DNA of 64,000 bases from an uncultured Gammaproteobacteria bacterium (lineage in GTDB: Bacteria > Patescibacteriota > Microgenomatia > UBA1406 > HO2-37-13b), in contig CAYYYW010000001.1 of assembly GCA_964476245.1 (NCBI GenBank), positions 26,808 through 90,807 on the forward strand. Direction: 5' to 3'. Shown one piece after another: positions 4,728 through 58,930 of this stretch. The stretch's first letter is position 1. Each line of letters starts with the position of its first letter. The position numbers and the translations under genes are program-made. The notes below the pieces were generated by a model. The model saw only the letters and a program-made list of their open reading frames with translations. It was not told the DNA's origin and made no database searches.

Positions 4728-6179
4728 TTAAAAGCCATAAATTTTTTCCAGCGCCTCAATTCCTTTAAAGAACAATTCTTCATCAAAATTTTCATTAGGT
4801 GCATGAATATTGCTATTGGGCAAAGTAAAGCCGGTTAAAACAATTGGCTTTTTAAAAATCCTCTGGAGAATTTCCGCTACAGGAATAGTTGCCCCCGAAC
4901 GATTGAATAAAGGTTTGTTTCCGAAGAATTCTTGCAAAATCTTGGCGGTGTTTTTTATATGCTTATTGTTAAAATCAGAATAAAACGGAGCGGCTTTACT
5001 AAATGTTTTTAGCTGATGCTTAACTCCATCGGGCATATTCTCAATGATGAATTTTTTGACTAATTTTTCAATCTTGTCTGGGTCTTGATATTCTACTAAA
5101 CGAAAAGAAAATTTAACGGTGGCGGAAGCCGGAATGATTGTTTTTGACCCGGGGCCCTGGTAACCCGAAAAAAAACCATTAATATCAAATGAAGGATAAA
5201 TTTTACTGGCTAATGACGGATGAACGTTATCAAAATCAACTATCCGATAAACAGCCGCATTTTTTGCCAGATTGTTAACGTTTCTTACCGCAGCTTTTAA
5301 CAAGTCTCTTTCTTCCTCTAAAATTTTTCGGCAATCATCATAAAAATGGGGAATTTTAATCTTGTTTGAATCAGCCGATTTTATTTTTATCATCAAATCA
5401 GCTAATATTTGGGCTGGGTTTAAGATACGATTGCCATAAGAACCTGAATGAACATCATGCTCCCCTATCTTAATGGTCAACTCAAAGTATAAAATTCCTC
5501 GCAGTCCATAAAAAATCTGAGGAGTGGTTTTATTAGCCATGCCCGTATCAGTAAGATAAAAAACATCAACTCCATTTAAAATATCTTTTGCTTTTTCCGC
5601 ATATTCTTCAAAATGAGCGCTTCCTATTTCCTCTTCTCCTTCTAAAATAAAAACAATATTATTTTTTAATCGTTTGTTTTCGATTAACCCACCTACGTCG
5701 AGACTTCGGCGGGCAAGTCGACTAATCGAAGTAATGTTCTGGATAATGTGCCCTTTATTGTCCGCCACTCCCCGCCCGGAAATTTTACCGTTCTTTATAA
5801 CTAATTTAAAAGGGGGTGTTTGCCACTGATCAACCGGGTCCTCCGGCTGGACATCATAGTGTCCATAAATGCCAATAGTTTTAACCTTACCATTTAAGAT
5901 ACGATCGTTGTTGAAATGGTTATTATCCAAAGTTGAAGATTTACCATTTCGATCACGATCATGATCTAAGTGGTTATTTTTTGGAGTGAAATGGGCAATA
6001 ACTAACGGTGGATTATTTCCTTTTGAAAATACTTTGACTTTAAACCCAAGTCCTGTTAACTGTTTTTTTAAAAATTCAACGGTCTTTTGAATTTCAGAAA
6101 AACGGCCGGGATCGGCGGAGACGGATTGAATGGAAATAAACTCTGCCAATTGCTTTAAAACGCTTTGTCTGTTAGTCAT
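4728..6179 (-). CDS. M20 family metallopeptidase (ArgE/DapE/dipeptidase-like) carrying an inserted Asn/Asp/His-rich loop
   Basis: 483 aa with IGIYGHYDVQPEDPVDQWQTPPF and GRGVADNKGH, the M20 metal-site motifs. An extra loop, NNHLDHDRDRNGKSSTLDNNHFNNDRILNG, is encoded by palindromic repeats at 5888..5976. Confidence 0.75.
   Translation of the reverse strand: MTNRQSVLKQLAEFISIQSVSADPGRFSEIQKTVEFLKKQLTGLGFKVKVFSKGNNPPLVIAHFTPKNNHLDHDRDRNGKSSTLDNNHFNNDRILNGKVKTIGIYGHYDVQPEDPVDQWQTPPFKLVIKNGKISGRGVADNKGHIIQNITSISRLARRSLDVGGLIENKRLKNNIVFILEGEEEIGSAHFEEYAEKAKDILNGVDVFYLTDTGMANKTTPQIFYGLRGILYFELTIKIGEHDVHSGSYGNRILNPAQILADLMIKIKSADSNKIKIPHFYDDCRKILEEERDLLKAAVRNVNNLAKNAAVYRIVDFDNVHPSLASKIYPSFDINGFFSGYQGPGSKTIIPASATVKFSFRLVEYQDPDKIEKLVKKFIIENMPDGVKHQLKTFSKAAPFYSDFNNKHIKNTAKILQEFFGNKPLFNRSGATIPVAEILQRIFKKPIVLTGFTLPNSNIHAPNENFDEELFFKGIEALEKIYGF
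5888..5976. repeat. Two TACCAT...ATGGT(T)A nested palindromes inside the M20 CDS
   Basis: TACCATTTaagatACGATCGTtgttgAAATGGTtA (5888..5922) and TACCATTTcgaTCACGATCATGATCtAAGTGGTtA (5942..5976). Same family as the copies at 10048, 10672, 49408, 49460 and 50125. Confidence 0.7.
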
Positions 6180-9836: not shown

Positions 9837-9919
9837 GCCAGAGTGGTGAAATGGCAGACACGCACGCTTCAGGGGCGTGTGCTCGTAAGAGCGTGGGAGT
9901 TCAACTCTCCCCTCTGGCA
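9837..9919 (+). tRNA. tRNA-Leu (anticodon CAG)
   Basis: Acceptor GCCAGAG/CTCTGGC. Anticodon stem CACGC/GCGTG with loop TTCAGGG. Long variable arm (TGCTCGTAAGAGCG). T-arm GGGAGTTCAACTCTCCC. CCA is not encoded. Confidence 0.85.
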
Positions 9920-9927
9920 CTACGGCG

Positions 9928-10027
9928 GGCAGGCAGGTACGCTTCAGGAGCGTATGCCGCAAGGCGTAGAGGTTCAAATCCTCCTCGAGGCACTTTGGCA
10001 GGCAGGTACGCACGGTTCAGGGCCGTG
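9928..10027 (+). pseudogene. Two decayed partial tRNA-Leu(CAG)-like copies
   Basis: 9928..9992 repeats GGCAGG + anticodon arm (GTACGC-TTCAGGA-GCGTAT) + variable arm + T-arm (GAGGTTCAAATCCTC) + a 3' acceptor-like end, but has no matching 5' acceptor or D arm. 9997..10027 repeats GGCAGGCAGGTACG + an anticodon-arm-like hairpin (CACGG-TTCAGGG-CCGTG). Confidence 0.5.
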
Positions 10028-10047: not shown

Positions 10048-10081
10048 TACCATCTCGATCACGGCCGTTATCAAGATAGTA
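10048..10081. repeat. Nested palindrome TACCATCTcgaTCACGGCCGTTatcAAGATAGTA
   Basis: Outer arms TACCATCT/AGATAGTA and inner palindrome ACGGCCGT. Overlaps the stop codon (10071..10073) of the PaaX/Cas2-like gene. Confidence 0.75.
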
Positions 10082-10661
10082 ATCCAAAATATCTTTTTAC
10101 CTGTTCTTCATTCTCAATCTCATCAGCAGTTATATAACTTATATACTTTGCCCCTTCCACTATTTTCTTCACCAACCCAATCTCTTTTTTACATTGATAA
10201 GGAAATATATAAACGCTTTGTTGATACTGGTAAAACCCAATCTCGCGCAAAAAGTTCCTCAAGTAATCTCTCTTATTCCTTTGATCTTCCGGCACGTCAA
10301 AAATAATAATAAACCATTTACCATTCCATCTTTTTTTTCTTCTTTTAAGAGTCAATAATGGTTTAAGAGAGTATTTTAAAATCACCGGAGTCCAGCCAGA
10401 TTTTAAATATACATGGGCTTCGCCATTTTTTTCAATTATTTGAATCAGCTCTTTTTTCTCAAGATTTTTCAGTACTCTTTTTATTTTCTTTTCGGAGATT
10501 TTCCTGTTATTTAATTCTTTTATTAAGCTTAAAATCGTACCAAATACTATCGGAAAGTTGGGGGTTACAAGAAATGTACCTCCAAGAAGTATCCCCAACC
10601 CTATGCTCGACAAGACTATCTGACGTAATTCACCATGCTTGAATTTATTTTCTTCTTCCAT
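10071..10661 (-). CDS. Membrane-associated wHTH protein with C-terminal PaaX_C/Cas2-like domain (paralog 1)
   Basis: 196 aa. Hydrophobic N-terminus (IVLSSIGLGILLGGTFLV...), a wHTH-like stretch (KKIKRVLKNLEKKELIQIIEKNG), then WFIIIFDVPEDQRNKRDYLRNFLREIGFYQYQQSVYIFP, the pattern shared by PaaX C-terminal and Cas2-like domains. Clear paralog of 49496..50098. Confidence 0.6.
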   Translation of the reverse strand: MEEENKFKHGELRQIVLSSIGLGILLGGTFLVTPNFPIVFGTILSLIKELNNRKISEKKIKRVLKNLEKKELIQIIEKNGEAHVYLKSGWTPVILKYSLKPLLTLKRRKKRWNGKWFIIIFDVPEDQRNKRDYLRNFLREIGFYQYQQSVYIFPYQCKKEIGLVKKIVEGAKYISYITADEIENEEQVKRYFGLLS

Positions 10662-10671
10662 ATTACTATTA

Positions 10672-10705
10672 TACCAACTATATCACGGCCGTTGTTAAGA
10701 TGGTA
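10672..10705. repeat. Nested palindrome TACCAactataTCACGGCCGTTgttAAGATGGTA
   Basis: Second copy with the same TCACGGCCGTT core. Lies about 10 nt upstream of the ATG of 10071..10661. Confidence 0.75.
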
Positions 10706-22991: not shown

Positions 22992-23541
22992 AATAATAAA
23001 ATTAATGTCAAATTATAGATCTAAAATCTTAAAACTTGCTAACTCTGAATTCTATTATGCTTTTATTGTCCTTTATGTTATTTTTGCCTTTTCCGTCGCC
23101 TCGTTGTCTTTAAGTTTTTTTAACCAACTTAAGATTTTTACCAATAAATCCAATTCGATGAACCCGACCATCAATACCGGCAGTCTTCTTGTGGTAAAAA
23201 AATCTTACGAATATGATGTGGGTAATATTATTTCTTATTACGCGAAAATCAATGGAAAAGAAGAGATCGTCACTCATCGTATTTTTCGAATCGGTGGCAA
23301 TATCTATCTGACCAAAGGCGACGCCAACCAAGCGATAGACGAACAAAAAGTGATTCCCCGGCTTATCATTGGAAAGGTAATTTTAATAATTCCTTACTTA
23401 GGCTATCCTATCGGCTTTGCCAAAACTCCAGTTGGCACTTGGCTGTTAATTATTTTTCCGGCTATTTTAATTATTTTCACCGAGATTTTGGTAATTGTTT
23501 TTCAAAATCCTCCGGGTGAAACCAAAGCTGGGTATCAGTAA
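22978..23541 (+). CDS. Second SipW-type signal peptidase I
   Basis: SNSMNPTI, IVTHRI, TKGDANQAIDE and a C-terminal TM. The track start at 22978 is GTG; an ATG at 23005 is an alternative start. Confidence 0.75.
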   Translation: MGIGKIIKLMSNYRSKILKLANSEFYYAFIVLYVIFAFSVASLSLSFFNQLKIFTNKSNSMNPTINTGSLLVVKKSYEYDVGNIISYYAKINGKEEIVTHRIFRIGGNIYLTKGDANQAIDEQKVIPRLIIGKVILIIPYLGYPIGFAKTPVGTWLLIIFPAILIIFTEILVIVFQNPPGETKAGYQ

Positions 23542-24430
23542 TAGGCTCAGTAGTTTGGTGTTTTCTAATAAAGTAGAGTTGTAGTTTTTTAAGTAAATTT
23601 TCTCCGCTATCAAAAATCCAAATGACAAATGACAAATGACAAATAAAATTCAAAATCCAAAATCTAAATTTTAAATATTTGAGCTTTGAGCTTGATTTGA
23701 CATTTGAGTTTTGACATTTGAAATTTGAACGTGCGTTTGGGAAAATATTAAACACCCATCTATTTGCCTCTAAAAACCGCTCATAAATATTCTCTTTGTT
23801 TATTAACGGCTTCATCTGTAAAATTTCATGAGCTACATATTCGTTTTTCTTAAAATCCGGCACCTCAAGACTGTTTTCATCAAAAAAAAGATTAAGACAG
23901 ACTTTATCTCTGCTACCTATCCGTGACGACCGTTGCCTATAGGTATGTCGCTTCCTGCGAATACCCATAGCTTGAGCGATTAATAAGGCAAGAAACCTTC
24001 CTGTAAACAATCTGTTTTTCGCCGTAATCACAAATAAATCAATATCGTCTTCCTCTTTCGCATTCATCATCGCCAACGCCCCTGATAAACCAATTAGTTT
24101 AATTTGGGAAAAAAAGGAAAGTAATTGAATGTAAAATCCTATTTTTTTAATCTTTGCTTGAGATATTCTTGTTCTAACAATCTTATTTTTGAAAAATATA
24201 CAATACGGGGGGAGGGTATATAAGTTAACCATTTTGATACGGCCGTAACAAAGTGACAAATGAAGGCTGCGGCTTTTTATTAGCTTTTTTGTTTTAACAA
24301 GGTTCTCCATCCAGCTTAGTAAATTTTTTTTAGTGGTTCTTATGGGTAAAAAAGTATAAACCTCATCAATCGTTGGTGAATAGTCAAAAAAATTGAAGTA
24401 TTTAATTGTTCTTAAAATTTCTTTCTTCAT
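23477..24430 (-). CDS. Hypothetical protein (possible nucleotidyltransferase-fold), coupled to the tagA-like gene
   Basis: 317 aa, with an ATGA overlap to the upstream gene at 24427..24430. Contains EEDDIDLFVITAKN. The C-terminal third contains the in-frame hairpin element 23612..23728. The 3' end overlaps convergent 22978..23541 by 65 nt. Confidence 0.5.
   Translation of the reverse strand: MKKEILRTIKYFNFFDYSPTIDEVYTFLPIRTTKKNLLSWMENLVKTKKLIKSRSLHLSLCYGRIKMVNLYTLPPYCIFFKNKIVRTRISQAKIKKIGFYIQLLSFFSQIKLIGLSGALAMMNAKEEDDIDLFVITAKNRLFTGRFLALLIAQAMGIRRKRHTYRQRSSRIGSRDKVCLNLFFDENSLEVPDFKKNEYVAHEILQMKPLINKENIYERFLEANRWVFNIFPNARSNFKCQNSNVKSSSKLKYLKFRFWILNFICHLSFVIWIFDSGENLLKKLQLYFIRKHQTTEPITDTQLWFHPEDFEKQLPKSR
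23612..23728. repeat. AT-rich hairpin of 8-bp units (AAATGACA)n, in frame in a CDS
   Basis: aaatgacaaatgacaaatgacaaat opposed to atttgacatttgagttttgacatttgaaatttga. Translated as FKCQNSNVKSSSKLKYLKFRFWILNFICHLSFVIW. Confidence 0.65.
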
Positions 24431-48546: not shown

Positions 48547-49248
48547 TTATGTATTCAATATAACCAGTTCATTAAACATGCTCTGTTCATCATCTTCCCA
48601 TTTTCCGGTCCAAGATAATGAAAATTCGTGAGAAATTTTTTTGGCATTATTGCTATAAATAGATATTTTGATCATATATTTCCCTGGAGTTAAACAATCC
48701 CACTGAGAATAGTATCTTTCAGGAAGTTCAAAGATAAACTTGTTGGTTGCTTGATCTCTATTAGAAAATCCTTTATATACGGAATCGTAATTGTCATCCG
48801 GATGCTGAATTCTACCTAAGTCACAATACATTTCTTTTTCTGGCTGGATTGTTCTTTTGTAAGGATCTCTAATTCCTGACCATTTTAAATTTACAGGTGA
48901 AAATTTTTTATTCTCTACCATCTCACCAGCGTTATTTTCTTTAAAAATCTTTTCTAGAAACACTTCGCACTCCTCTGCTTTAGTTTTGCCAAAATTCTCA
49001 ACTAAAAACCTAAAATAATAAACGGGAAAGTCCGAATTTTTACCAACCCTCCGTGTTTTATGACAATCTGGAGGTGCCAATTTAAATTTTATTCTTAATT
49101 TTGGCGAGAAGTATTTATGTTTCAACTTTTCAGCTAGATAAGGAGCATAAATAGCTATTATTCCCAAGAAAAGCGTCGAGCCAATCTGTACCCAGTTACT
49201 AATAGATATGCTCGAATTCATCAAAGCTGAACTTGAAGAAATTTTCAT
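48547..49248 (-). CDS. Hypothetical membrane-anchored protein, 233 aa
   Basis: ATG at 49248 (MKISSSSALMN...), one TM (WVQIGSTLFLGIIAIYAPYL). The track extension to 49326 reads through tRNA-Gln. Confidence 0.45.
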   Translation of the reverse strand: MKISSSSALMNSSISISNWVQIGSTLFLGIIAIYAPYLAEKLKHKYFSPKLRIKFKLAPPDCHKTRRVGKNSDFPVYYFRFLVENFGKTKAEECEVFLEKIFKENNAGEMVENKKFSPVNLKWSGIRDPYKRTIQPEKEMYCDLGRIQHPDDNYDSVYKGFSNRDQATNKFIFELPERYYSQWDCLTPGKYMIKISIYSNNAKKISHEFSLSWTGKWEDDEQSMFNELVILNT

Positions 49249-49254
49249 ATTTAG

Positions 49255-49325
49255 CTGCGAGGCAGGGATTCGAACCCCGATTACTTGGTTCAGAGCCAAG
49301 TGTGCTACCATTACACCACCTCGCA
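49255..49325 (-). tRNA. tRNA-Gln (anticodon CTG)
   Basis: The reverse complement TGCGAGGTGGTGTAATGGTAGCACACTTGGCTCTGAACCAAGTAATCGGGGTTCGAATCCCTGCCTCGCAG has a U1-A72 acceptor, anticodon stem CTTGG/CCAAG and loop CTCTGAA. Confidence 0.8.
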
Positions 49326-49407
49326 AAAATCATTCAACTCCAATTTTACCAAATTAAAATTGATTTTAGATAGGAAGAAACTACTTCTTGGTCTTACCCG
49401 CCACTAT

Positions 49408-49439
49408 TACCATCTACGCACGGTCGGGCAACAATGGTA
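49408..49439. repeat. Nested palindrome TACCATCTacgCACGGTCGGGCAACaATGGTA
   Basis: Same outer arms as the copies at 10048 and 10672. Confidence 0.65.
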
Positions 49440-49459
49440 ACCTCACACGCTCACATAAT

Positions 49460-49498
49460 TACCGTTTTTGTCCGATCGGACAGAAACAGAAATGGCTA
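49460..49498. repeat. Nested palindrome TACCgttttTGTCCGATCGGACAgaaacagaaATGGcTA
   Basis: Perfect inner palindrome TGTCCGATCGGACA. The right arm overlaps the stop codon (49496..49498) of paralog 2, mirroring the arrangement at 10048..10081. Confidence 0.7.
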
Positions 49499-50098
49499 TA
49501 TTCCAAAAAAAATCTTAGCAGCTTTTTCATCATCTATCCTTTCGGCAACAATGTATCTAATGTATCTTCCACCCTCAACTATTTGCTTGATCAAATCAAC
49601 CTCTTCTTTACACTCATATGGAAAAAGATAGACGCTTTTCTGATAGGGATAAAATCCTAAACCGCATAAAAAGCGTCTTAAATAGTGTCGTTTATTATTC
49701 TGCTCTTCCGGCACGTCAAAAATAACTAAATACCACTTCCCCGTCCATTCTTTCTTCTTCTTTTTAAGATCCAGCAAAGCTTTTAAAGAATACTTGATAA
49801 AGATGTCTTTTCTTCTTTCTTTAAGATGAACTAAAATGTCACTCCCTCTTTTTTCTATATCAATTAATTCTTTCTTCTCTAGATTTTTTAGAACTCTTTT
49901 TACCTTTTTTTCAGAAACTTTAAATCCTTTTATTTCTTCAATTACTTTGATAATTGAACCAATAACAATAGGAAAATTTGGAAAAACGAAGGTCCCGCCA
50001 ACAAATAATCCTAAGGCGATACTTTTCAAAACTATCTCTCTTAACTCTCCGTGTTGAAAACTTGGTTCGTTTGTTTTGTCTAATTTTCTCTGGGACAT
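49496..50098 (-). CDS. Membrane-associated wHTH protein with C-terminal PaaX_C/Cas2-like domain (paralog 2)
   Basis: 200 aa, collinear with 10071..10661: HGELREIVLKSIALGLFVGGTF..., KKVKRVLKNLEKKELIDIEKRG, WYLVIFDVPEEQNNKRHYLRRFLCGLGFYPYQKSVYLFP. Confidence 0.6.
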   Translation of the reverse strand: MSQRKLDKTNEPSFQHGELREIVLKSIALGLFVGGTFVFPNFPIVIGSIIKVIEEIKGFKVSEKKVKRVLKNLEKKELIDIEKRGSDILVHLKERRKDIFIKYSLKALLDLKKKKKEWTGKWYLVIFDVPEEQNNKRHYLRRFLCGLGFYPYQKSVYLFPYECKEEVDLIKQIVEGGRYIRYIVAERIDDEKAAKIFFGI

Positions 50099-50124
50099 AA
50101 TTGAGTCATAATGTTAATTTAAGA

Positions 50125-50156
50125 TACCATTGCTGTCCGATCGTGTCAAGATGGTA
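50125..50156. repeat. Nested palindrome TACCATtgcTGTCCGATCGtgtcAAGATGGTA
   Basis: Shares the GTCCGATCG core with 49460..49498. Lies 26 nt upstream of the ATG of paralog 2. Confidence 0.75.
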
Positions 50157-50164
50157 ACTAAGTT

Positions 50165-50752
50165 TTAAAGACCAATCTGTGAAGCGATTTCTTTCATTGA
50201 GTTTAAACAGATCTCAATAAATTTTTCTAAGGAAAGATTTAACCCTTCAGGCAAACTACATTTATTAATATCTTCTCTTCTTGTCCCGGCAGCAAACTTG
50301 GGTTCTTTAAAACGTTTTAACACCGATGATAATTTAACGTCAGCTAATTTTTTTGAAGGATAAACCAAGGTGGTGGCCACAATTAAACCAGTTAGACTAT
50401 CAGCACAAAAAATCGACCACTCTGCTTTTGATCTTGGCTGGACTCCTGTTAACTCAGGAGCGTGCGACTTTATTATTCGATGAATCGATTCATTGATAAT
50501 TAAACCATGTTTGGCTAAAACTTCGGTGGTTTTTTGGGGATGGGTAGCTTTAAATCCCCCTAAATAATCAATGTCATGAATTAATCCCGCCAGTAACCAC
50601 TCCTCTTTTGATGGTTCGTCTGGGGAAAGCAAATTATTGGCTTGAAAATAATTATAAAGCCCAGCCATACAGACCTCAACCGCTAAAGAATGTTTGAAAA
50701 TATTGGGTTCTAATTGTTGTTTTAATGCCTCAATATATTTTTGACGATCCAT
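50165..50752 (-). CDS. HD-domain phosphohydrolase
   Basis: HSLAVEVCMAGL ... LLAGLIHDIDY gives the H...HD motif. The track start (50809) is TTG; ATG 50752 (MDRQKYIEALK) is preferred. Confidence 0.65.
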   Translation of the reverse strand: MDRQKYIEALKQQLEPNIFKHSLAVEVCMAGLYNYFQANNLLSPDEPSKEEWLLAGLIHDIDYLGGFKATHPQKTTEVLAKHGLIINESIHRIIKSHAPELTGVQPRSKAEWSIFCADSLTGLIVATTLVYPSKKLADVKLSSVLKRFKEPKFAAGTRREDINKCSLPEGLNLSLEKFIEICLNSMKEIASQIGL

Positions 50753-50817
50753 GAATTTAGAAAATGGTTGTTGGAAAATAGAAAATCGTAATAGAAATTG
50801 GAAAATCAAATTTTAAT

Positions 50818-53637
50818 TCAATTTTCAATAATAAAATTTATAATCTTTCCTTCCACATAAACTACCCGATATTTTTTCCCTTCTAAGTATTTCTTTACTT
50901 TCTCCTCTTTTAATGACCTATTGATGATGGCCGTTTCGGATAGGTTGGTTATCAACATTTTGATAGTGGCACGGAGCCTACCGTTAACTTGAATAGGAAT
51001 GACAATTTCCTCTTCTGTTATTTTTCCTTCCACCTCAGGCCAACGAGAAAGATGAATTGAAGTTTTTTCACCAAAAACTTCTCGCCAGATTTGTTCTGTA
51101 ACAAAAGGAGCGAAGGGAGCGAGGATTTGCAAGAATTTCTTGGCGTTATTTTGAGATAAACGTCTCGTCATTTTAACCGCCGCGGTTCCAGATGGACTAT
51201 TTTCTAAAACCGCCGCGGTTCTTCCTTGGCAGCTTTCTTCCCAAGCGTTAAGAAATTCCATCATAGCCGCAATTGCCGTGTTAAATTTTACGTTCGTAAT
51301 ATCGGAAGAAGCCTTTAAAATCGTCTTTTGAAGCTTGACAACAAGTTTTTTATCCTCTTCATTTTCGTTGTTAGTTAACTTAGCAGGATTATGGTAAATT
51401 TGCCAAATTCGGGTTAAAAATCTGTATCCGCCCTGAAGCGCTTTAATTGACCAAGCGATTTCAGAAGGAAATGGTGCCATAAACATCTCATAGATCCGTA
51501 ATGTATCAGCCCCGTATTCATTCACCACATCATCAGGATTAATTACATTTCCCAATGACTTACTCATTTTTCGATGATCCTCGGCTAAAACCATACCAAC
51601 GTTACGAAGACATAAAAACGGTTCGGAAAAATCTAATAATCCAAGGTCTTGCAGAGCCTTAACCCAAAAACGAGAATATAAAAGATGTAAAACCGCATGC
51701 TCTGCGCCACCAAGATACCAATCAACAGGAAGCCATTGTTTGCCGGAATTTTCAATTTTCATCCGCCAGTTGGCGGACCAATTTTCAAAAGAAGGGAGCG
51801 AAGATGCCTGTTTCGAGTCAATCGCCTGGGTCCCTTTAGGGTGAGGCGGACGAGAAACACGGCCTCGAGCCTCCTGATTCCAAAAAACAAATGCTAAAAA
51901 ATACCAGCACGACCCTGCCCAATTAGGCATGGTATCGGTTTCACGACGCGCTGAACCACCACAATGAGGACATTTTGTTTTAACAAAAGATTCAATTTTA
52001 GCTAGTGGAGACTCTCCCGTTTCCGTCGGTTGATAACTTTTCACGTACGGAAGTTTTACAGGAAGTTCGTTTTCAGAAATGGGAAACCAACCATATAATT
52101 CCCTGTCATTCTGAGCCCTGCCGTGGCGGGGCGAAGAATCTATCGAAGCGTTATTACACTCACTTCGTTCGCTAGATCCTTCACTTCGTTCAGGATGACT
52201 TTTTGGGGAATTCCAATAATTGATGCGTTTTTTTGCGCACTTTTCGCAAAAAATCATCGGAATTGGTTCGCCCCAATACCTTTGTCTTGAAAAAATCCAA
52301 TCGCGAAGATGATAGCTCACTGTCTTTTTTCCCCAACCTTTTTTCTCAATGTAATCCATGATCTTTTTTGTAGCTTCATGAATATCTAAACCATTCAAAA
52401 ATCCTGAATTAATCATTTTCCCTTCTTCTTCCTGAACTTGCTCTTTTTTGATAATTGGTGAGGTATCTCCATCTCTTCCGACAACAACGCGAACAATTTC
52501 CAAACCATACTCTTTAGCAAACTCAAAATCGCGGATATCGTGCCCGGGAACACCAACCACCGCACCCGTTCCAACTTGAGGTAAAACAAAATCCGAAATC
52601 CAAATGGGCATCGGTCTTCCGTTTAAATTATTAATCGCATAAAATCCCGTAAACACACCGGTTTTTTTTCGACCTTCAGCGATGCGTTCCAATTCTGACT
52701 TTGAAATCGCTTTTTGAACATATTTTTTAATCTTTTTTAATAGATTCTTCGACTCCCCCGACTCAACGTCGGGGTCGCTCAGAATGACAGGAGGGGGGGT
52801 AATTTTTCCATCTAATATTTTTTTTACAAATTCATGCTCCGGAGCAATAACAATAAAAGTCGCGCCAAAGTTTGTGTCGGGGCGAGTGGTAAAACACTCT
52901 ATTTGATATTTAATATTTAATATTTGATATTTTATGTTTATGCCTTCTTTTCTCCCAATCCAATTCCTTTGCATCTCTAAAATCCCCTTTGGCCAATCTA
53001 ATTCTTTTAAATCGGAAAGTAACCGATCAGCATAGGCAGTGATGCGAAATATCCATTGTGGTAATTCTTTTTTGGTTATTTTATTACCACAACGTTCATG
53101 AGTTCCATCCGACAAAACTTCCTCCTCGGCCAAGCCGGTTTTACACTTAGGACAAAAATTAATCGCTGTATTTTTCTTATACAAAAGCCCCATTTTAAAA
53201 AACTGAATAAAAAGCCATTGAGTCCATTTATAATATTGCGGGTCGGTGGTGGAAAACTCTCTTCCCCAATCATAAGAAAAACCCAACATCTTCATTTGCC
53301 GTTTAAAATTGGCGATATTTTGAGGCACTATGTCCATCGGGTTTTTTTTGGCCACAATAGCAGCGTTTTCTGCTGGTAAACCGAAGGCATCCCAACCCAT
53401 GGGATATAAAACCGCATTACCCTTCATCCTTAAATATCGAGCTAAAACATCCGTTCCAGTATAAATACGGACGTGACCCACGTGAAGACCAGTTCCTGAC
53501 GGATAAGGAAACATAGAGAGACAGTAAGTTTTCAGTTTTCGGTTATCAGCTGTCAGTTTGGGAGTCTGATAAACTTTTTCTTTTTCCCATTCTTCTACCC
53601 ATTTTGATTCAAATTGAGAAGGTAAATATTTGATCAT
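50818..53637 (-). CDS. leuS: Leucyl-tRNA synthetase
   Basis: 939 aa with FPYPSGTGLHVGHVRIYT (HIGH region) and KMSKSLGN (KMSKS). Carries at least four in-frame repeat insertions. Confidence 0.95.
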   Translation of the reverse strand: MIKYLPSQFESKWVEEWEKEKVYQTPKLTADNRKLKTYCLSMFPYPSGTGLHVGHVRIYTGTDVLARYLRMKGNAVLYPMGWDAFGLPAENAAIVAKKNPMDIVPQNIANFKRQMKMLGFSYDWGREFSTTDPQYYKWTQWLFIQFFKMGLLYKKNTAINFCPKCKTGLAEEEVLSDGTHERCGNKITKKELPQWIFRITAYADRLLSDLKELDWPKGILEMQRNWIGRKEGINIKYQILNIKYQIECFTTRPDTNFGATFIVIAPEHEFVKKILDGKITPPPVILSDPDVESGESKNLLKKIKKYVQKAISKSELERIAEGRKKTGVFTGFYAINNLNGRPMPIWISDFVLPQVGTGAVVGVPGHDIRDFEFAKEYGLEIVRVVVGRDGDTSPIIKKEQVQEEEGKMINSGFLNGLDIHEATKKIMDYIEKKGWGKKTVSYHLRDWIFSRQRYWGEPIPMIFCEKCAKKRINYWNSPKSHPERSEGSSERSECNNASIDSSPRHGRAQNDRELYGWFPISENELPVKLPYVKSYQPTETGESPLAKIESFVKTKCPHCGGSARRETDTMPNWAGSCWYFLAFVFWNQEARGRVSRPPHPKGTQAIDSKQASSLPSFENWSANWRMKIENSGKQWLPVDWYLGGAEHAVLHLLYSRFWVKALQDLGLLDFSEPFLCLRNVGMVLAEDHRKMSKSLGNVINPDDVVNEYGADTLRIYEMFMAPFPSEIAWSIKALQGGYRFLTRIWQIYHNPAKLTNNENEEDKKLVVKLQKTILKASSDITNVKFNTAIAAMMEFLNAWEESCQGRTAAVLENSPSGTAAVKMTRRLSQNNAKKFLQILAPFAPFVTEQIWREVFGEKTSIHLSRWPEVEGKITEEEIVIPIQVNGRLRATIKMLITNLSETAIINRSLKEEKVKKYLEGKKYRVVYVEGKIINFIIEN
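51803..51868. repeat. GC-rich palindromic element in frame in leuS (same family as 44417..44489)
   Basis: gatgcctgtttcgagtcaatcgcctgggtccctttagggtgaggcggacgagaaacacggcctcgag. Translated as ARGRVSRPPHPKGTQAIDSKQASS. Confidence 0.7.
52105..52199. repeat. GTCATTCT...AGGATGAC palindromic element in frame in leuS
   Basis: gtcattctgagccctgccgtggcggggcgaagaatc ... gatccttcacttcgttcaggatgac. Translated as SHPERSEGSSERSECNNASIDSSPRHGRAQNDR. Confidence 0.75.
52742..52788. repeat. Half element (...CGCTCAGAATGAC) in frame in leuS
   Basis: agattcttcgactcccccgactcaacgtcggggtcgctcagaatgac. Translated as ILSDPDVESGESKN. Confidence 0.6.
52901..52935. repeat. 8-bp-periodic AT-rich tandem repeat in leuS
   Basis: atttgatatttaatatttaatatttgatattttat. 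Translated as NIKYQILNIKYQI. Confidence 0.65.
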
Positions 53638-58279: not shown

Positions 58280-58483
58280 TTTTTTATTATACTAAATTGA
58301 GTCTAACTCGACCAAATAGAGCTTGACTTAATTGTGGAACCCCTACGGCTTTACAGCCGTGGTATTTTTATTTTCGGGGTTCCGACGCCCCTTCAGAGGT
58401 CGGAACCCCGACCCAGAAAGCCATTCATCCACAAGTTTACATTCATGGCTTTCTGGCGTCGGGGTAAAATCAGAATGTGTTTT

Positions 58484-58851: not shown

Positions 58852-58930
58852 GCCCGCCACAGTCAAACGTGGCTGGGACGTCGAGTCAAACTCGACAGGC
58901 ACGTTTGACAGTGCCGTTTGACGTCCCGCC
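58852..58930. repeat. GC-rich multi-hairpin element with GTCAAAC/GTTTGAC loops in the leader of the RRM gene
   Basis: gcccgccacagtcaaacgtggctgggacgtcgagtcaaactcgacaggcacgtttgacagtgccgtttgacgtcccgcc. Sub-hairpins gtcgagTCAAACtcgac and ggcacGTTTGACagtgcc. Related palindromes at 56101..56115 and 54321..54337. Confidence 0.6.

Follow-up and report, generated by a model that had tools for sequence, protein, structure and literature searches.

Two mini-PaaX genes and their palindromes

We analyzed a 64-kb stretch of contig CAYYYW010000001.1 (the whole stretch is hereafter called the window), which has a G+C content of 37% and whose genes have their homologues in Candidatus Roizmanbacteria, a lineage of the Candidate Phyla Radiation (CPR). 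The window carries two open reading frames (ORFs) for small proteins, here termed mini-PaaX, that share 58% identity: paralog 2, of 200 amino acids (aa), at positions 49496 to 50098, and paralog 1, of 196 aa and identical to P0020, at 10071 to 10661. Both genes are bounded by palindromes, and the genes and all of the palindromes of this family in the window are given here as minus-strand features.

The palindrome upstream of paralog 2, TACCATTGCTGTCCGATCGTGTCAAGATGGTA, occupies positions 50125 to 50156/50157, 26 nucleotides (nt) from the ATG at 50098. In the sense of the gene it reads TTACCATCTTGACA-CGATCG-GACAGCAATGGTA, with the core at 50138 to 50143 and a right side of the form N7-ATGGTA. 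A second palindrome, TACCGTTTTTGTCCGATCGGACAGAAACAGAAATGGCTA (49461 to 49499, within a 42-nt insertion at 49461 to 49502 that is discussed below), overlaps the stop codon (CTA on the plus strand, 49496 to 49498) and has a perfect TGTCCGATCGGACA center with degenerate arms. A third unit, the downstream palindrome of the gene, lies at 49408 to 49439 (about 49407 to 49441), 82 nt upstream of a tRNA-Gln gene; it has the form TTACCAT-N-CGGTCG-N-ATGGTAA, with CGGTCG as its core. At paralog 1, palindromes with the core ACGGCCGT (CGGCCG) are located upstream (10672 to 10705) and downstream, over the stop codon (10048 to 10081). The arms TACCAT/ATGGTA are thus common to both loci and the cores differ, CGATCG at paralog 2 and CGGCCG at paralog 1. 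An earlier reading of the window from its letters alone (the sequence-only reading) had described these palindromes, the architecture repeated from one locus to the other, the shared arms, and the different cores, and all of these features were recovered when the sequences were checked.

Solo copies occur without a mini-PaaX gene. Two are in frame in an M20 peptidase gene (4728 to 6179, minus strand), at 5887 to 5923 and 5941 to 5977, and one with the core CGGCCG is inside the ORF at 23477 to 24430, at 24226 to 24260. The latter ORF encodes 317 aa with a nucleotidyltransferase-like look and reads ...LHLSLCYGRIKMVN... at the palindrome. The pattern TACCAT-N10-40-ATGGTA occurs twice in the window against 0.06 expected, and eight copies are found in the 64 kb with a profile of the units (three at paralog 2, two at paralog 1, two in the M20 gene, and one in the ORF at 23477 to 24430); the palindromes are therefore not due to chance.

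Mini-PaaX is a winged helix fused to a Cas2-like domain

Residues 116 to 193 of paralog 2 match the Pfam model PaaX_M (PF20803; E value of 4.6e-19, 68.7 bits against a cutoff of 24), and paralog 1 matches the same model with an E value of 2.8e-21. Cas2 models score at their thresholds for paralog 2 (PF09827, 23.7 bits against a cutoff of 23.8; TIGR01573, 24.6 against 24.5), and the PaaX equivalog model TIGR02277 yields 31.3 bits against a cutoff of 264.55. No Pfam match was obtained for the PaaX_C effector (phenylacetyl-CoA) domain, and paralog 2 ends after the Cas2-like domain. Of the "PaaX_C/Cas2-like" domain named in the sequence-only reading, the Cas2-like half is retained and PaaX_C is replaced by PaaX_M. 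By sequence profile, paralog 2's winged helix-turn-helix (wHTH) part gives weak matches only (TrmB and MCM_C). An AlphaFold2 model of the protein (predicted local distance difference test [pLDDT] score of 67) places a winged helix at residues 18 to 104, with helices at 18 to 33, 42 to 57, and 63 to 74 followed by a beta wing, and a C-terminal Cas2-like ferredoxin fold at 122 to 198 (beta-alpha-beta-beta-alpha-beta). When this model was used as a Foldseek query, the best match was Escherichia coli PaaX (8a39; 163 columns aligned), followed by type II-A Cas2 (probability of ∼1.0). In a profile alignment of the family to PDB entries, the FDVPE...GFYPYQKSVY segment falls onto Cas2 6jhz, with FDVPE on the FDLP of that structure. 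Paralog 2 thus joins a winged helix to a Cas2-like domain and lacks the C-terminal, ligand-binding domain that PaaX has. The Pfam and NCBIfam matches of the paralog proteins include no HUH/Y1 (Y1_Tnp), DDE, or serine/tyrosine recombinase domain, with HUH/Y1 checked to an E value of 1.

An exhaustive hidden Markov model search returned 1,956 cluster representatives (clusters at 50% identity) at an E value of ≤1e-10, mostly of 180 to 200 aa. Several mini-PaaX paralogues are present per genome, and for many members of the family the annotation reads "CRISPR-associated endonuclease Cas2." Conservation is much stronger in the Cas2-like domain than in the wHTH, with near-invariant D128, R137, Q153, S155, and C163; D128, the aspartate at the Cas2 catalytic position, is 98% conserved. 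No relatives were found in IMG/VR, and PHROGs and PADLOC gave only a weak replication-initiator winged-helix match and Cas2 matches, on which grounds a phage origin was rejected. Within the searchable literature collection, no description of the mini-PaaX family or of its palindromes was found.

Cognate palindromes bracket mini-PaaX genes across the family

About 170 related loci were collected in total, and the bracketing counts come from 80 loci of GTDB species genomes. In 52/76 loci, a core-centered palindrome (CG[AG][TC]CG or similar) is present no more than 140 nt upstream of the gene, and a palindrome is located at or just past the stop codon in 59/78. The background rate in the same loci is 0.0125 palindromes per 150 nt, which corresponds to a more than 50-fold enrichment at mini-PaaX genes. 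Even homologues at 27 to 37% identity, on contigs labeled Saccharibacteria, Paceibacterota, and Harrisonbacteria, have perfect 38- to 44-bp palindromes on both sides. Bracketing by palindromes is therefore a rule of the family.

The arms vary widely among loci (ACCATCTT, ACCTATT, TTATCTT, ACCACTTT, ACAACTT, and others), and the two copies at one gene resemble each other. Among 38 non-redundant loci, the upstream and downstream arms of the same gene have an identity of 0.76, compared with 0.415 for non-cognate pairs; the downstream copy that ranks first as a match to an upstream copy is that of the same gene in 28 loci, and the core hexamer is the same on both sides in 33, compared with 15.8 expected. 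Arm classes match protein subfamilies in a qualitative way. Covariation between arms and individual residues was dropped because phylogeny, together with register shifts between units of 32 and 34 nt, dominated the mutual information, so only the qualitative correspondence is reported. Loci of the TTATCT arm class (L015, L025, L026, L039, L049, L050, L065, and L069) have an extra cognate palindrome ∼165 to 230 nt upstream of the ATG, beyond the promoter-proximal one.

The proposal that each paralog has one core class was borne out at the scale of the family, by the agreement of the cores in 33/38 loci, by the identity of cognate arms (76% versus 41%), and by the residue-core correspondence described below, to which no exception was found. 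These sequence comparisons provide good support for cognate recognition, in which each paralog would recognize its own element variant.

Residue 154 covaries with the center of the core

The ∼190 columns of the protein alignment were scanned for residues that predict the core, and the standout column was residue 154 (motif GFYPYQKSVY in paralog 2), the tip residue of the beta2-beta3 hairpin in the Cas2-like domain. Lysine is present at this position in 33/33 loci with a CGATCG core and also accompanies CTATAG and CCATGG, so that the rule is lysine with a central AT; glutamine is present in 24/24 loci with a CGGCCG core, that is, with a central GC. The mutual information between residue 154 and the core is 0.98 bits, whereas in permutations the best column reaches a 95th percentile of 0.40. 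On a neighbor-joining tree built without column 154, lysine and glutamine switched at least eight times, and shared ancestry alone therefore does not explain the match between residue and core. All 10 of the loci fetched afterward obey the rule, one of them encoding a glutamine protein with a CACGTG core. Among 141 diverse members of the family, Q153 and S155 are nearly invariant and position 154 is variable (K, E, Q, D, N, or R), the pattern that would be expected of a base-reading position.

The window obeys the same rule, with lysine and CGATCG at paralog 2 and glutamine (YQQSVY) and CGGCCG at paralog 1. The sequence-only reading had looked to the wHTH recognition helices as the source of specificity. 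That expectation failed, as the recognition helix KRVLKNLEKKE is identical in the two paralogs. Because the helix and the arms are the same and residue 154 and the core are different, the determinant is located in the Cas2-like domain and not in the winged helix. A distant member of the family with aspartate at position 154 (L174) has 38-bp cognate palindromes on both sides, with an asymmetric center, GCGGTCGT, in the same orientation in both. This locus gives a hint that further central dinucleotides are specified by further residues at position 154.

A predicted promoter lies within the upstream palindrome

A sigma-70-like promoter of paralog 2 is predicted at 50121 to 50149 on the minus strand, with TTGACA (50149 to 50144), a 17-nt spacer, and a TG-extended TATCTT (50126 to 50121). 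It is inside the upstream palindrome and is the sole promoter-like match in the interval from 49200 to 50300 (10/12 positions). Across the family, TTGAC[AG] is found in the sense-strand left half of 18/52 upstream units, compared with 1/59 downstream units and 1/52 upstream units in antisense, and TANNNT follows after 16 to 19 nt in 15 of the 18. Across loci, the spacing between palindrome center and ATG clusters at 26 to 29 nt, which leaves room only for very short leaders or none.

In E. coli, PaaX recognizes TGATTC-N27-GAATCA and represses Px, its own promoter, by keeping RNA polymerase away (PMC9493321). By analogy, the layout upstream of paralog 2, TACCAT-N20-ATGGTA over TTGACA-17-TATCTT, would be the PaaX operator in miniature. 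As single-stranded DNA, the upstream unit of paralog 2 folds no better than shuffled sequence (z score of −0.08), and upstream units in general have z scores of ∼0. Downstream units fold moderately (z scores of −1.6 to −3.9; −2.2 for the stop-codon unit of paralog 2 and −3.85 for the downstream unit of paralog 1). The weak folding of the upstream units favors recognition of duplex DNA, presumably through arms and core.

No intrinsic terminator, that is, a GC-rich stem-loop with a T-run, was detected in the interval from 49200 to 50300. The palindromes also occur upstream as well as downstream of the gene and are more than 50-fold enriched at mini-PaaX genes, and for these reasons a terminator reading, which the sequence-only reading had named as its possible refutation, was rejected.

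Gain, loss, and relocation of palindromes and cassettes

Cassettes of the ACCTATT arm class with 82 to 88% DNA identity were found in at least five unrelated contexts, among which a tblastx comparison of the 3-kb flanks gave no matches. The outer edges of the palindromes are exactly where identity between these cassettes, ∼90% inside, falls to the random level. A large share of the mini-PaaX loci in the series L001 to L080 are located 0.1 to 1.5 kb from a contig end, and two loci of one genome, L040 and L044, are 90% identical and are each at a contig end, which suggests that assemblies break at repeated cassettes.

The gene upstream of paralog 2, which encodes an HD-domain protein (50165 to 50809, minus strand), was used as the anchor of an empty-site test. 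The mini-PaaX gene was absent from 80/80 metagenome loci anchored on orthologues of the HD gene (63 to 75% aa identity), with 1 kb or more of downstream sequence in ∼59 of them. In the closest of these (L082 to L084, mutually identical across the stretch), tRNA-Gln follows 88 nt after the HD stop codon, with no palindrome; the corresponding gap in the window is 840 nt and contains the cassette. Several relatives have a solo palindrome 58 to 110 nt upstream of the HD gene, between it and the LeuRS gene (L088 at 535, L092 at 3096, L118 at 281, L099 at 3084, and L147 at 1216), in two arm classes (TTAATTAT... and AACCTATCT...); in the window, the LeuRS and HD genes overlap and no palindrome is present there.

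In one further locus, L165, the HD...tRNA-Gln context is the same and the encoded protein is 96% identical. Window positions 49461 to 49502 are missing from this locus and the unit at 49407 to 49441 is present; its protein ends in ...GIV* where paralog 2 ends in ...GI*. The palindrome at the stop codon therefore arrived separately, as a 42-nt insertion that created the present stop codon and remade the C terminus, and the conserved downstream partner of the gene is the unit at 49407 to 49441. The bracket proposed in the sequence-only reading accordingly holds for the upstream palindrome and this partner, but not for the stop-codon unit, a late arrival, as an original boundary. An additional 1.25 kb (656 to 1903), absent from the window, separates the HD stop codon of L165 from the upstream palindrome's outer edge and contains ORFs of 133 and 94 aa and an 84-aa ParE-family toxin.

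The two solo units of the M20 gene encode NHFNNDRILNGK and NHLDHDRDRNGK in a surface loop, and M20 orthologues carry zero, one, or two palindrome units in the same loop, which is a palindrome hotspot. In L081, this loop (∼10165 to 10290) contains one unit of the family and an unrelated hairpin with a 12-bp stem (CCCCGTTAGAA...TTCTAACGGGG). Elsewhere in L081, which is syntenic with the paralog 1 locus of the window, a PAP2 phosphatase gene (347 to 982) is located between paralog 1-type palindromes (272 to 308 and 967 to 1003); the window has no PAP2 gene at this place. Genes other than mini-PaaX can thus be bracketed by these palindromes. Solo copies number three in the 64-kb window and eight strong ones in 422 kb of related DNA, or about 1 per 20 to 50 kb. 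Taken together, the palindrome-gene-palindrome unit behaves as a discrete cassette that is gained, lost, and relocated as a block, and single palindromes insert alone, also in frame within genes.

Proposed mechanism and alternative explanations

We infer from these comparisons that mini-PaaX binds as a dimer to the 32- to 36-bp palindromes on either side of its own gene. The two winged helices would read the outer arms, TTACCATCTT and AAGATGGTAA, and the hairpin tip with residue 154 would read the two central base pairs of the core, lysine with AT and glutamine with GC. The upstream palindrome covers both the −35 and the −10 element of the gene's promoter, so that bound protein would be expected to silence the gene, as PaaX does at Px, and the second cognate palindrome would mark the other end of the unit. 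A self-contained cassette of this kind, in which dimeric mini-PaaX occupies the palindromes on either side of its gene and represses the promoter of that gene, is the explanation that we consider probable, with considerable room left for others. PaaX-type autorepression accounts for the upstream site at least as well as does the analogy to REP (repetitive extragenic palindrome) sequences and their RAYTs (REP-associated tyrosine transposases), on which the sequence-only reading had relied.

Several observations weigh against this explanation. A clean TTGAC[AG] is present in just 18/52 upstream units, and the distance from palindrome center to ATG is 42 nt at paralog 2, compared with ∼28 nt elsewhere. 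The AlphaFold2 model is of moderate confidence (pLDDT of 67) and monomeric, so that the position of residue 154 on the dyad is deduced rather than seen. Loss of the cassette in the relatives could take the place of gain in the lineage of the window. Finally, simple autorepression requires neither the downstream cognate site, nor solo copies in coding sequences, nor a near-invariant Cas2-like domain (D128, R137, Q153, S155, and C163); these three features point to an additional activity.

One candidate for such an activity is transposition. The unit may be a REP/RAYT-like or insertion sequence-like element in which the wHTH-Cas2-fold protein acts as a nuclease or transposase at the cores, moves the cassette, and mobilizes the solo units in trans, with repression as a secondary function; we regard this as possible but doubtful. 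Its attraction is that it would bring together the cognate palindromes at both ends of the gene, the sharp homology edges of the 82 to 88% identical cassettes and their presence in five or more unrelated contexts, the empty site in the nearest relatives, the insertion of 42-nt and 36-nt solo units on their own (in frame in M20), the frequent location of loci at contig ends, and the strong conservation of the Cas2-like domain and of D128 in particular, and that residue 154 would contact the exact center of the core. It is opposed by the lack of an HUH/Y1, DDE, or serine/tyrosine recombinase domain in the Pfam/NCBIfam matches, by the divergence of paralogues within a genome (58% identity in the window, with no near-identical copies as in active insertion sequences), by the age and partial synteny of the paralogues (paralog 1 is syntenic with L081), by the rarity of solo copies, and by the failure of upstream units to form hairpins. 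Nor was it possible to define a target-site duplication, because the empty site in L082 to L084 is too diverged to align. A minimal autonomous mobile element of ∼0.7 kb, whose mini-PaaX would be a nuclease or recombinase at the palindrome cores as well as its own repressor and whose 36- to 42-nt solo units would be non-autonomous derivatives, is tentative to the same degree. Any role of mini-PaaX in moving the cassette is thus conjectural, and a RAYT-like transposase is a live minority reading.

The remaining explanations are rated lower than the autorepressing cassette and the mobile element. Were the palindromes lox- or dif-like sites (13 + 8 + 13 bp) for a host recombinase, in Xer/pdif-like modules with mini-PaaX as an accessory factor or cargo, the 34-bp arm-core-arm layout with its conserved central region would be accounted for, as would the other bracketed genes (PAP2 in L081; toxin-antitoxin or small HTH genes in L003, L008, and L041) and the 1.25-kb module of L165 with its ParE-family toxin, which abuts the outer palindrome edge. 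This is unlikely, since the lysine/glutamine covariation suggests that the core is read by mini-PaaX itself, a symmetric core would remove directionality, and no recombinase gene was called in the neighborhoods inspected, although no genome-wide recombinase search was made. Slightly less credible still are ordinary local transcription factors whose downstream palindromes are terminator or mRNA-stabilizing hairpins and whose contexts differ through fast genome rearrangement. Such factors would fit the better folding of the downstream copies than the upstream ones (z scores of −1.6 to −3.9) and the precedent of PaaX autoregulation (PMC9493321), but not the lack of T-run terminators in 49200 to 50300, the arms and core that downstream copies share with the upstream operator of the same gene, the sharp homology edges, or the discrete 42-nt and 36-nt insertions. 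Least probable by far is an orphan remnant of CRISPR adaptation, a Cas2 flanked by CRISPR-like repeats: Cas2 models do score at threshold and the flanking repeats are palindromic and 32 to 36 bp long, but a CRISPR array was sought in the window and not found, no cas1 was present in any neighborhood inspected, the repeats bracket a gene and not spacers, and Cas2 is a much poorer fit than the PaaX_M profile and the N-terminal wHTH.

Comparison with known systems

The closest known relative in architecture is PaaX of E. coli (PDB 8a39 and 3l09), a GntR-like repressor of phenylacetate catabolism in which an N-terminal wHTH is likewise followed by a Cas2-like middle (dimerization) domain. Both proteins are associated with two inverted 6-bp arms around a long spacer (TGATTC-N27-GAATCA for PaaX, TACCAT-N20-22-ATGGTA for mini-PaaX) and with a site over their own promoter, autorepression being established for PaaX (PMC9493321) and predicted for mini-PaaX. 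Mini-PaaX differs in its length (∼200 aa versus ∼310), in the absence of PaaX_C and of nearby paa genes, in a GC-rich dyad core that covaries with a residue of the Cas2-like domain, in the second cognate site at the 3′ end of the gene, and in belonging to a multicopy, mobile family of CPR genomes. With Cas2, especially that of type II-A systems, it has in common the ferredoxin-like fold, the FD(V/L)P at the end of beta1 with its conserved aspartate, and GF..Q.SVY. Mini-PaaX is, however, fused to a wHTH, has no cas1 in the neighborhoods inspected and no CRISPR array in the window, and appears to recognize a specific palindrome, whereas Cas2 is a sequence-independent scaffold.

The resemblance to REP/RAYT systems (REPINs) lies in a single gene with short cognate palindromes on either side, a separate palindrome class for each protein class, and solo copies elsewhere. 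RAYTs, however, are HUH/Y1 enzymes that act on single-stranded hairpins, whereas mini-PaaX has no HUH/Y1 domain and its upstream units are unfolded; REPs number tens to hundreds per genome, typically as hairpin-forming units, whereas mini-PaaX solos number a few per 64 kb. The RAYT/REP analogy of the sequence-only reading is therefore retained for the architecture (flanking cognate palindromes, solo copies, and gain and loss), but solos are few, the protein has no HUH/Y1 domain, and a catalytic role for it is conjectural. Rickettsia palindromic elements and palindromes resembling miniature inverted-repeat transposable elements offer a parallel to the in-frame 36- to 42-nt solo units (in the M20 loop and at the end of paralog 2) and to their presence or absence among orthologues, but the mini-PaaX palindromes are much shorter and are matched to a resident DNA-binding protein. 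The Xer-dependent pdif modules of Acinetobacter plasmids are small modules, often encoding toxin-antitoxin systems, that have short arm-core-arm boundaries and occur in varied contexts. In contrast to these, no recombinase is linked to the mini-PaaX cassettes inspected, and the core is probably read by the encoded mini-PaaX.

Other features of the window

Paralog 2 is adjacent, as the sequence-only reading had stated, to a tRNA-Gln(CUG) gene (49254 to 49325, minus strand), its downstream neighbor. This is not a feature of the family: a tRNA gene is located within 400 nt in only 3/60 loci. Targeting of tRNA genes was therefore rejected, and the tRNA-Gln, tRNA-Leu, and tRNA-Ser neighbors in the window are incidental. 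The known RNA families found in the window are four tRNAs only. Directly after tRNA-Leu(CAG) (9837 to 9920), there are ∼1.3 degenerate extra copies of the tRNA body within 9853 to 10021 (period of 73, 76% matches), which stop a few bases short of the downstream palindrome of paralog 1 and could be decayed tRNA duplicates or scars of repeated insertion.

The LeuRS gene (50818 to 53637, minus strand) is also in the neighborhood of paralog 2; no paa catabolic genes were found near paralog 2, where the neighbors are the HD-domain protein, LeuRS, and tRNA-Gln, or in the related loci inspected. At ∼52000 to 52300, LeuRS has odd, low-complexity-looking inserts (e.g., ...SHPERSEGSSERSECNNASIDSSPRHGRAQNDRELYGW...; opposite strand, ...SFTSFRMT...), and a search for inverted repeats in this insert found none. 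GC-rich inverted repeats unrelated to the TACCAT family are present at 58374 to 58411 and 58855 to 58916; one is the pair TCGGGGTTCCGAC/GTCGGAACCCCGA, and the other is a 21-nt pair that is 86% complementary.

Implications

The unit looks like a self-regulating, probably mobile cassette of tiny-genome bacteria that was previously undescribed, and the finding would amount to a PaaX-type autorepressor with an unusual, possibly mobile architecture. For a Cas2-like domain, whose fold is usually seen as a sequence-independent scaffold, it provides a testable recognition rule at the dyad, Lys154 with AT and Gln154 with GC. It also accounts for hundreds of CPR genes annotated as "CRISPR-associated endonuclease Cas2" as members of a large family (∼2,000 clusters at 50% identity) of cassettes with private operators, and it documents that short palindromes insert in frame into housekeeping genes of very small genomes. 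The orthogonal specificities of arms and core could serve as compact, programmable repressor-operator pairs. If the unit is indeed an autonomous element, a Cas2 fold would be the catalytic heart of a transposon, and mini-PaaX would represent a concrete ancestor-like state for Cas2-type proteins that handle defined DNA repeats. Should mini-PaaX also move its cassette, it would define a new class of mobile element with a bearing on the origin of the CRISPR adaptation machinery.

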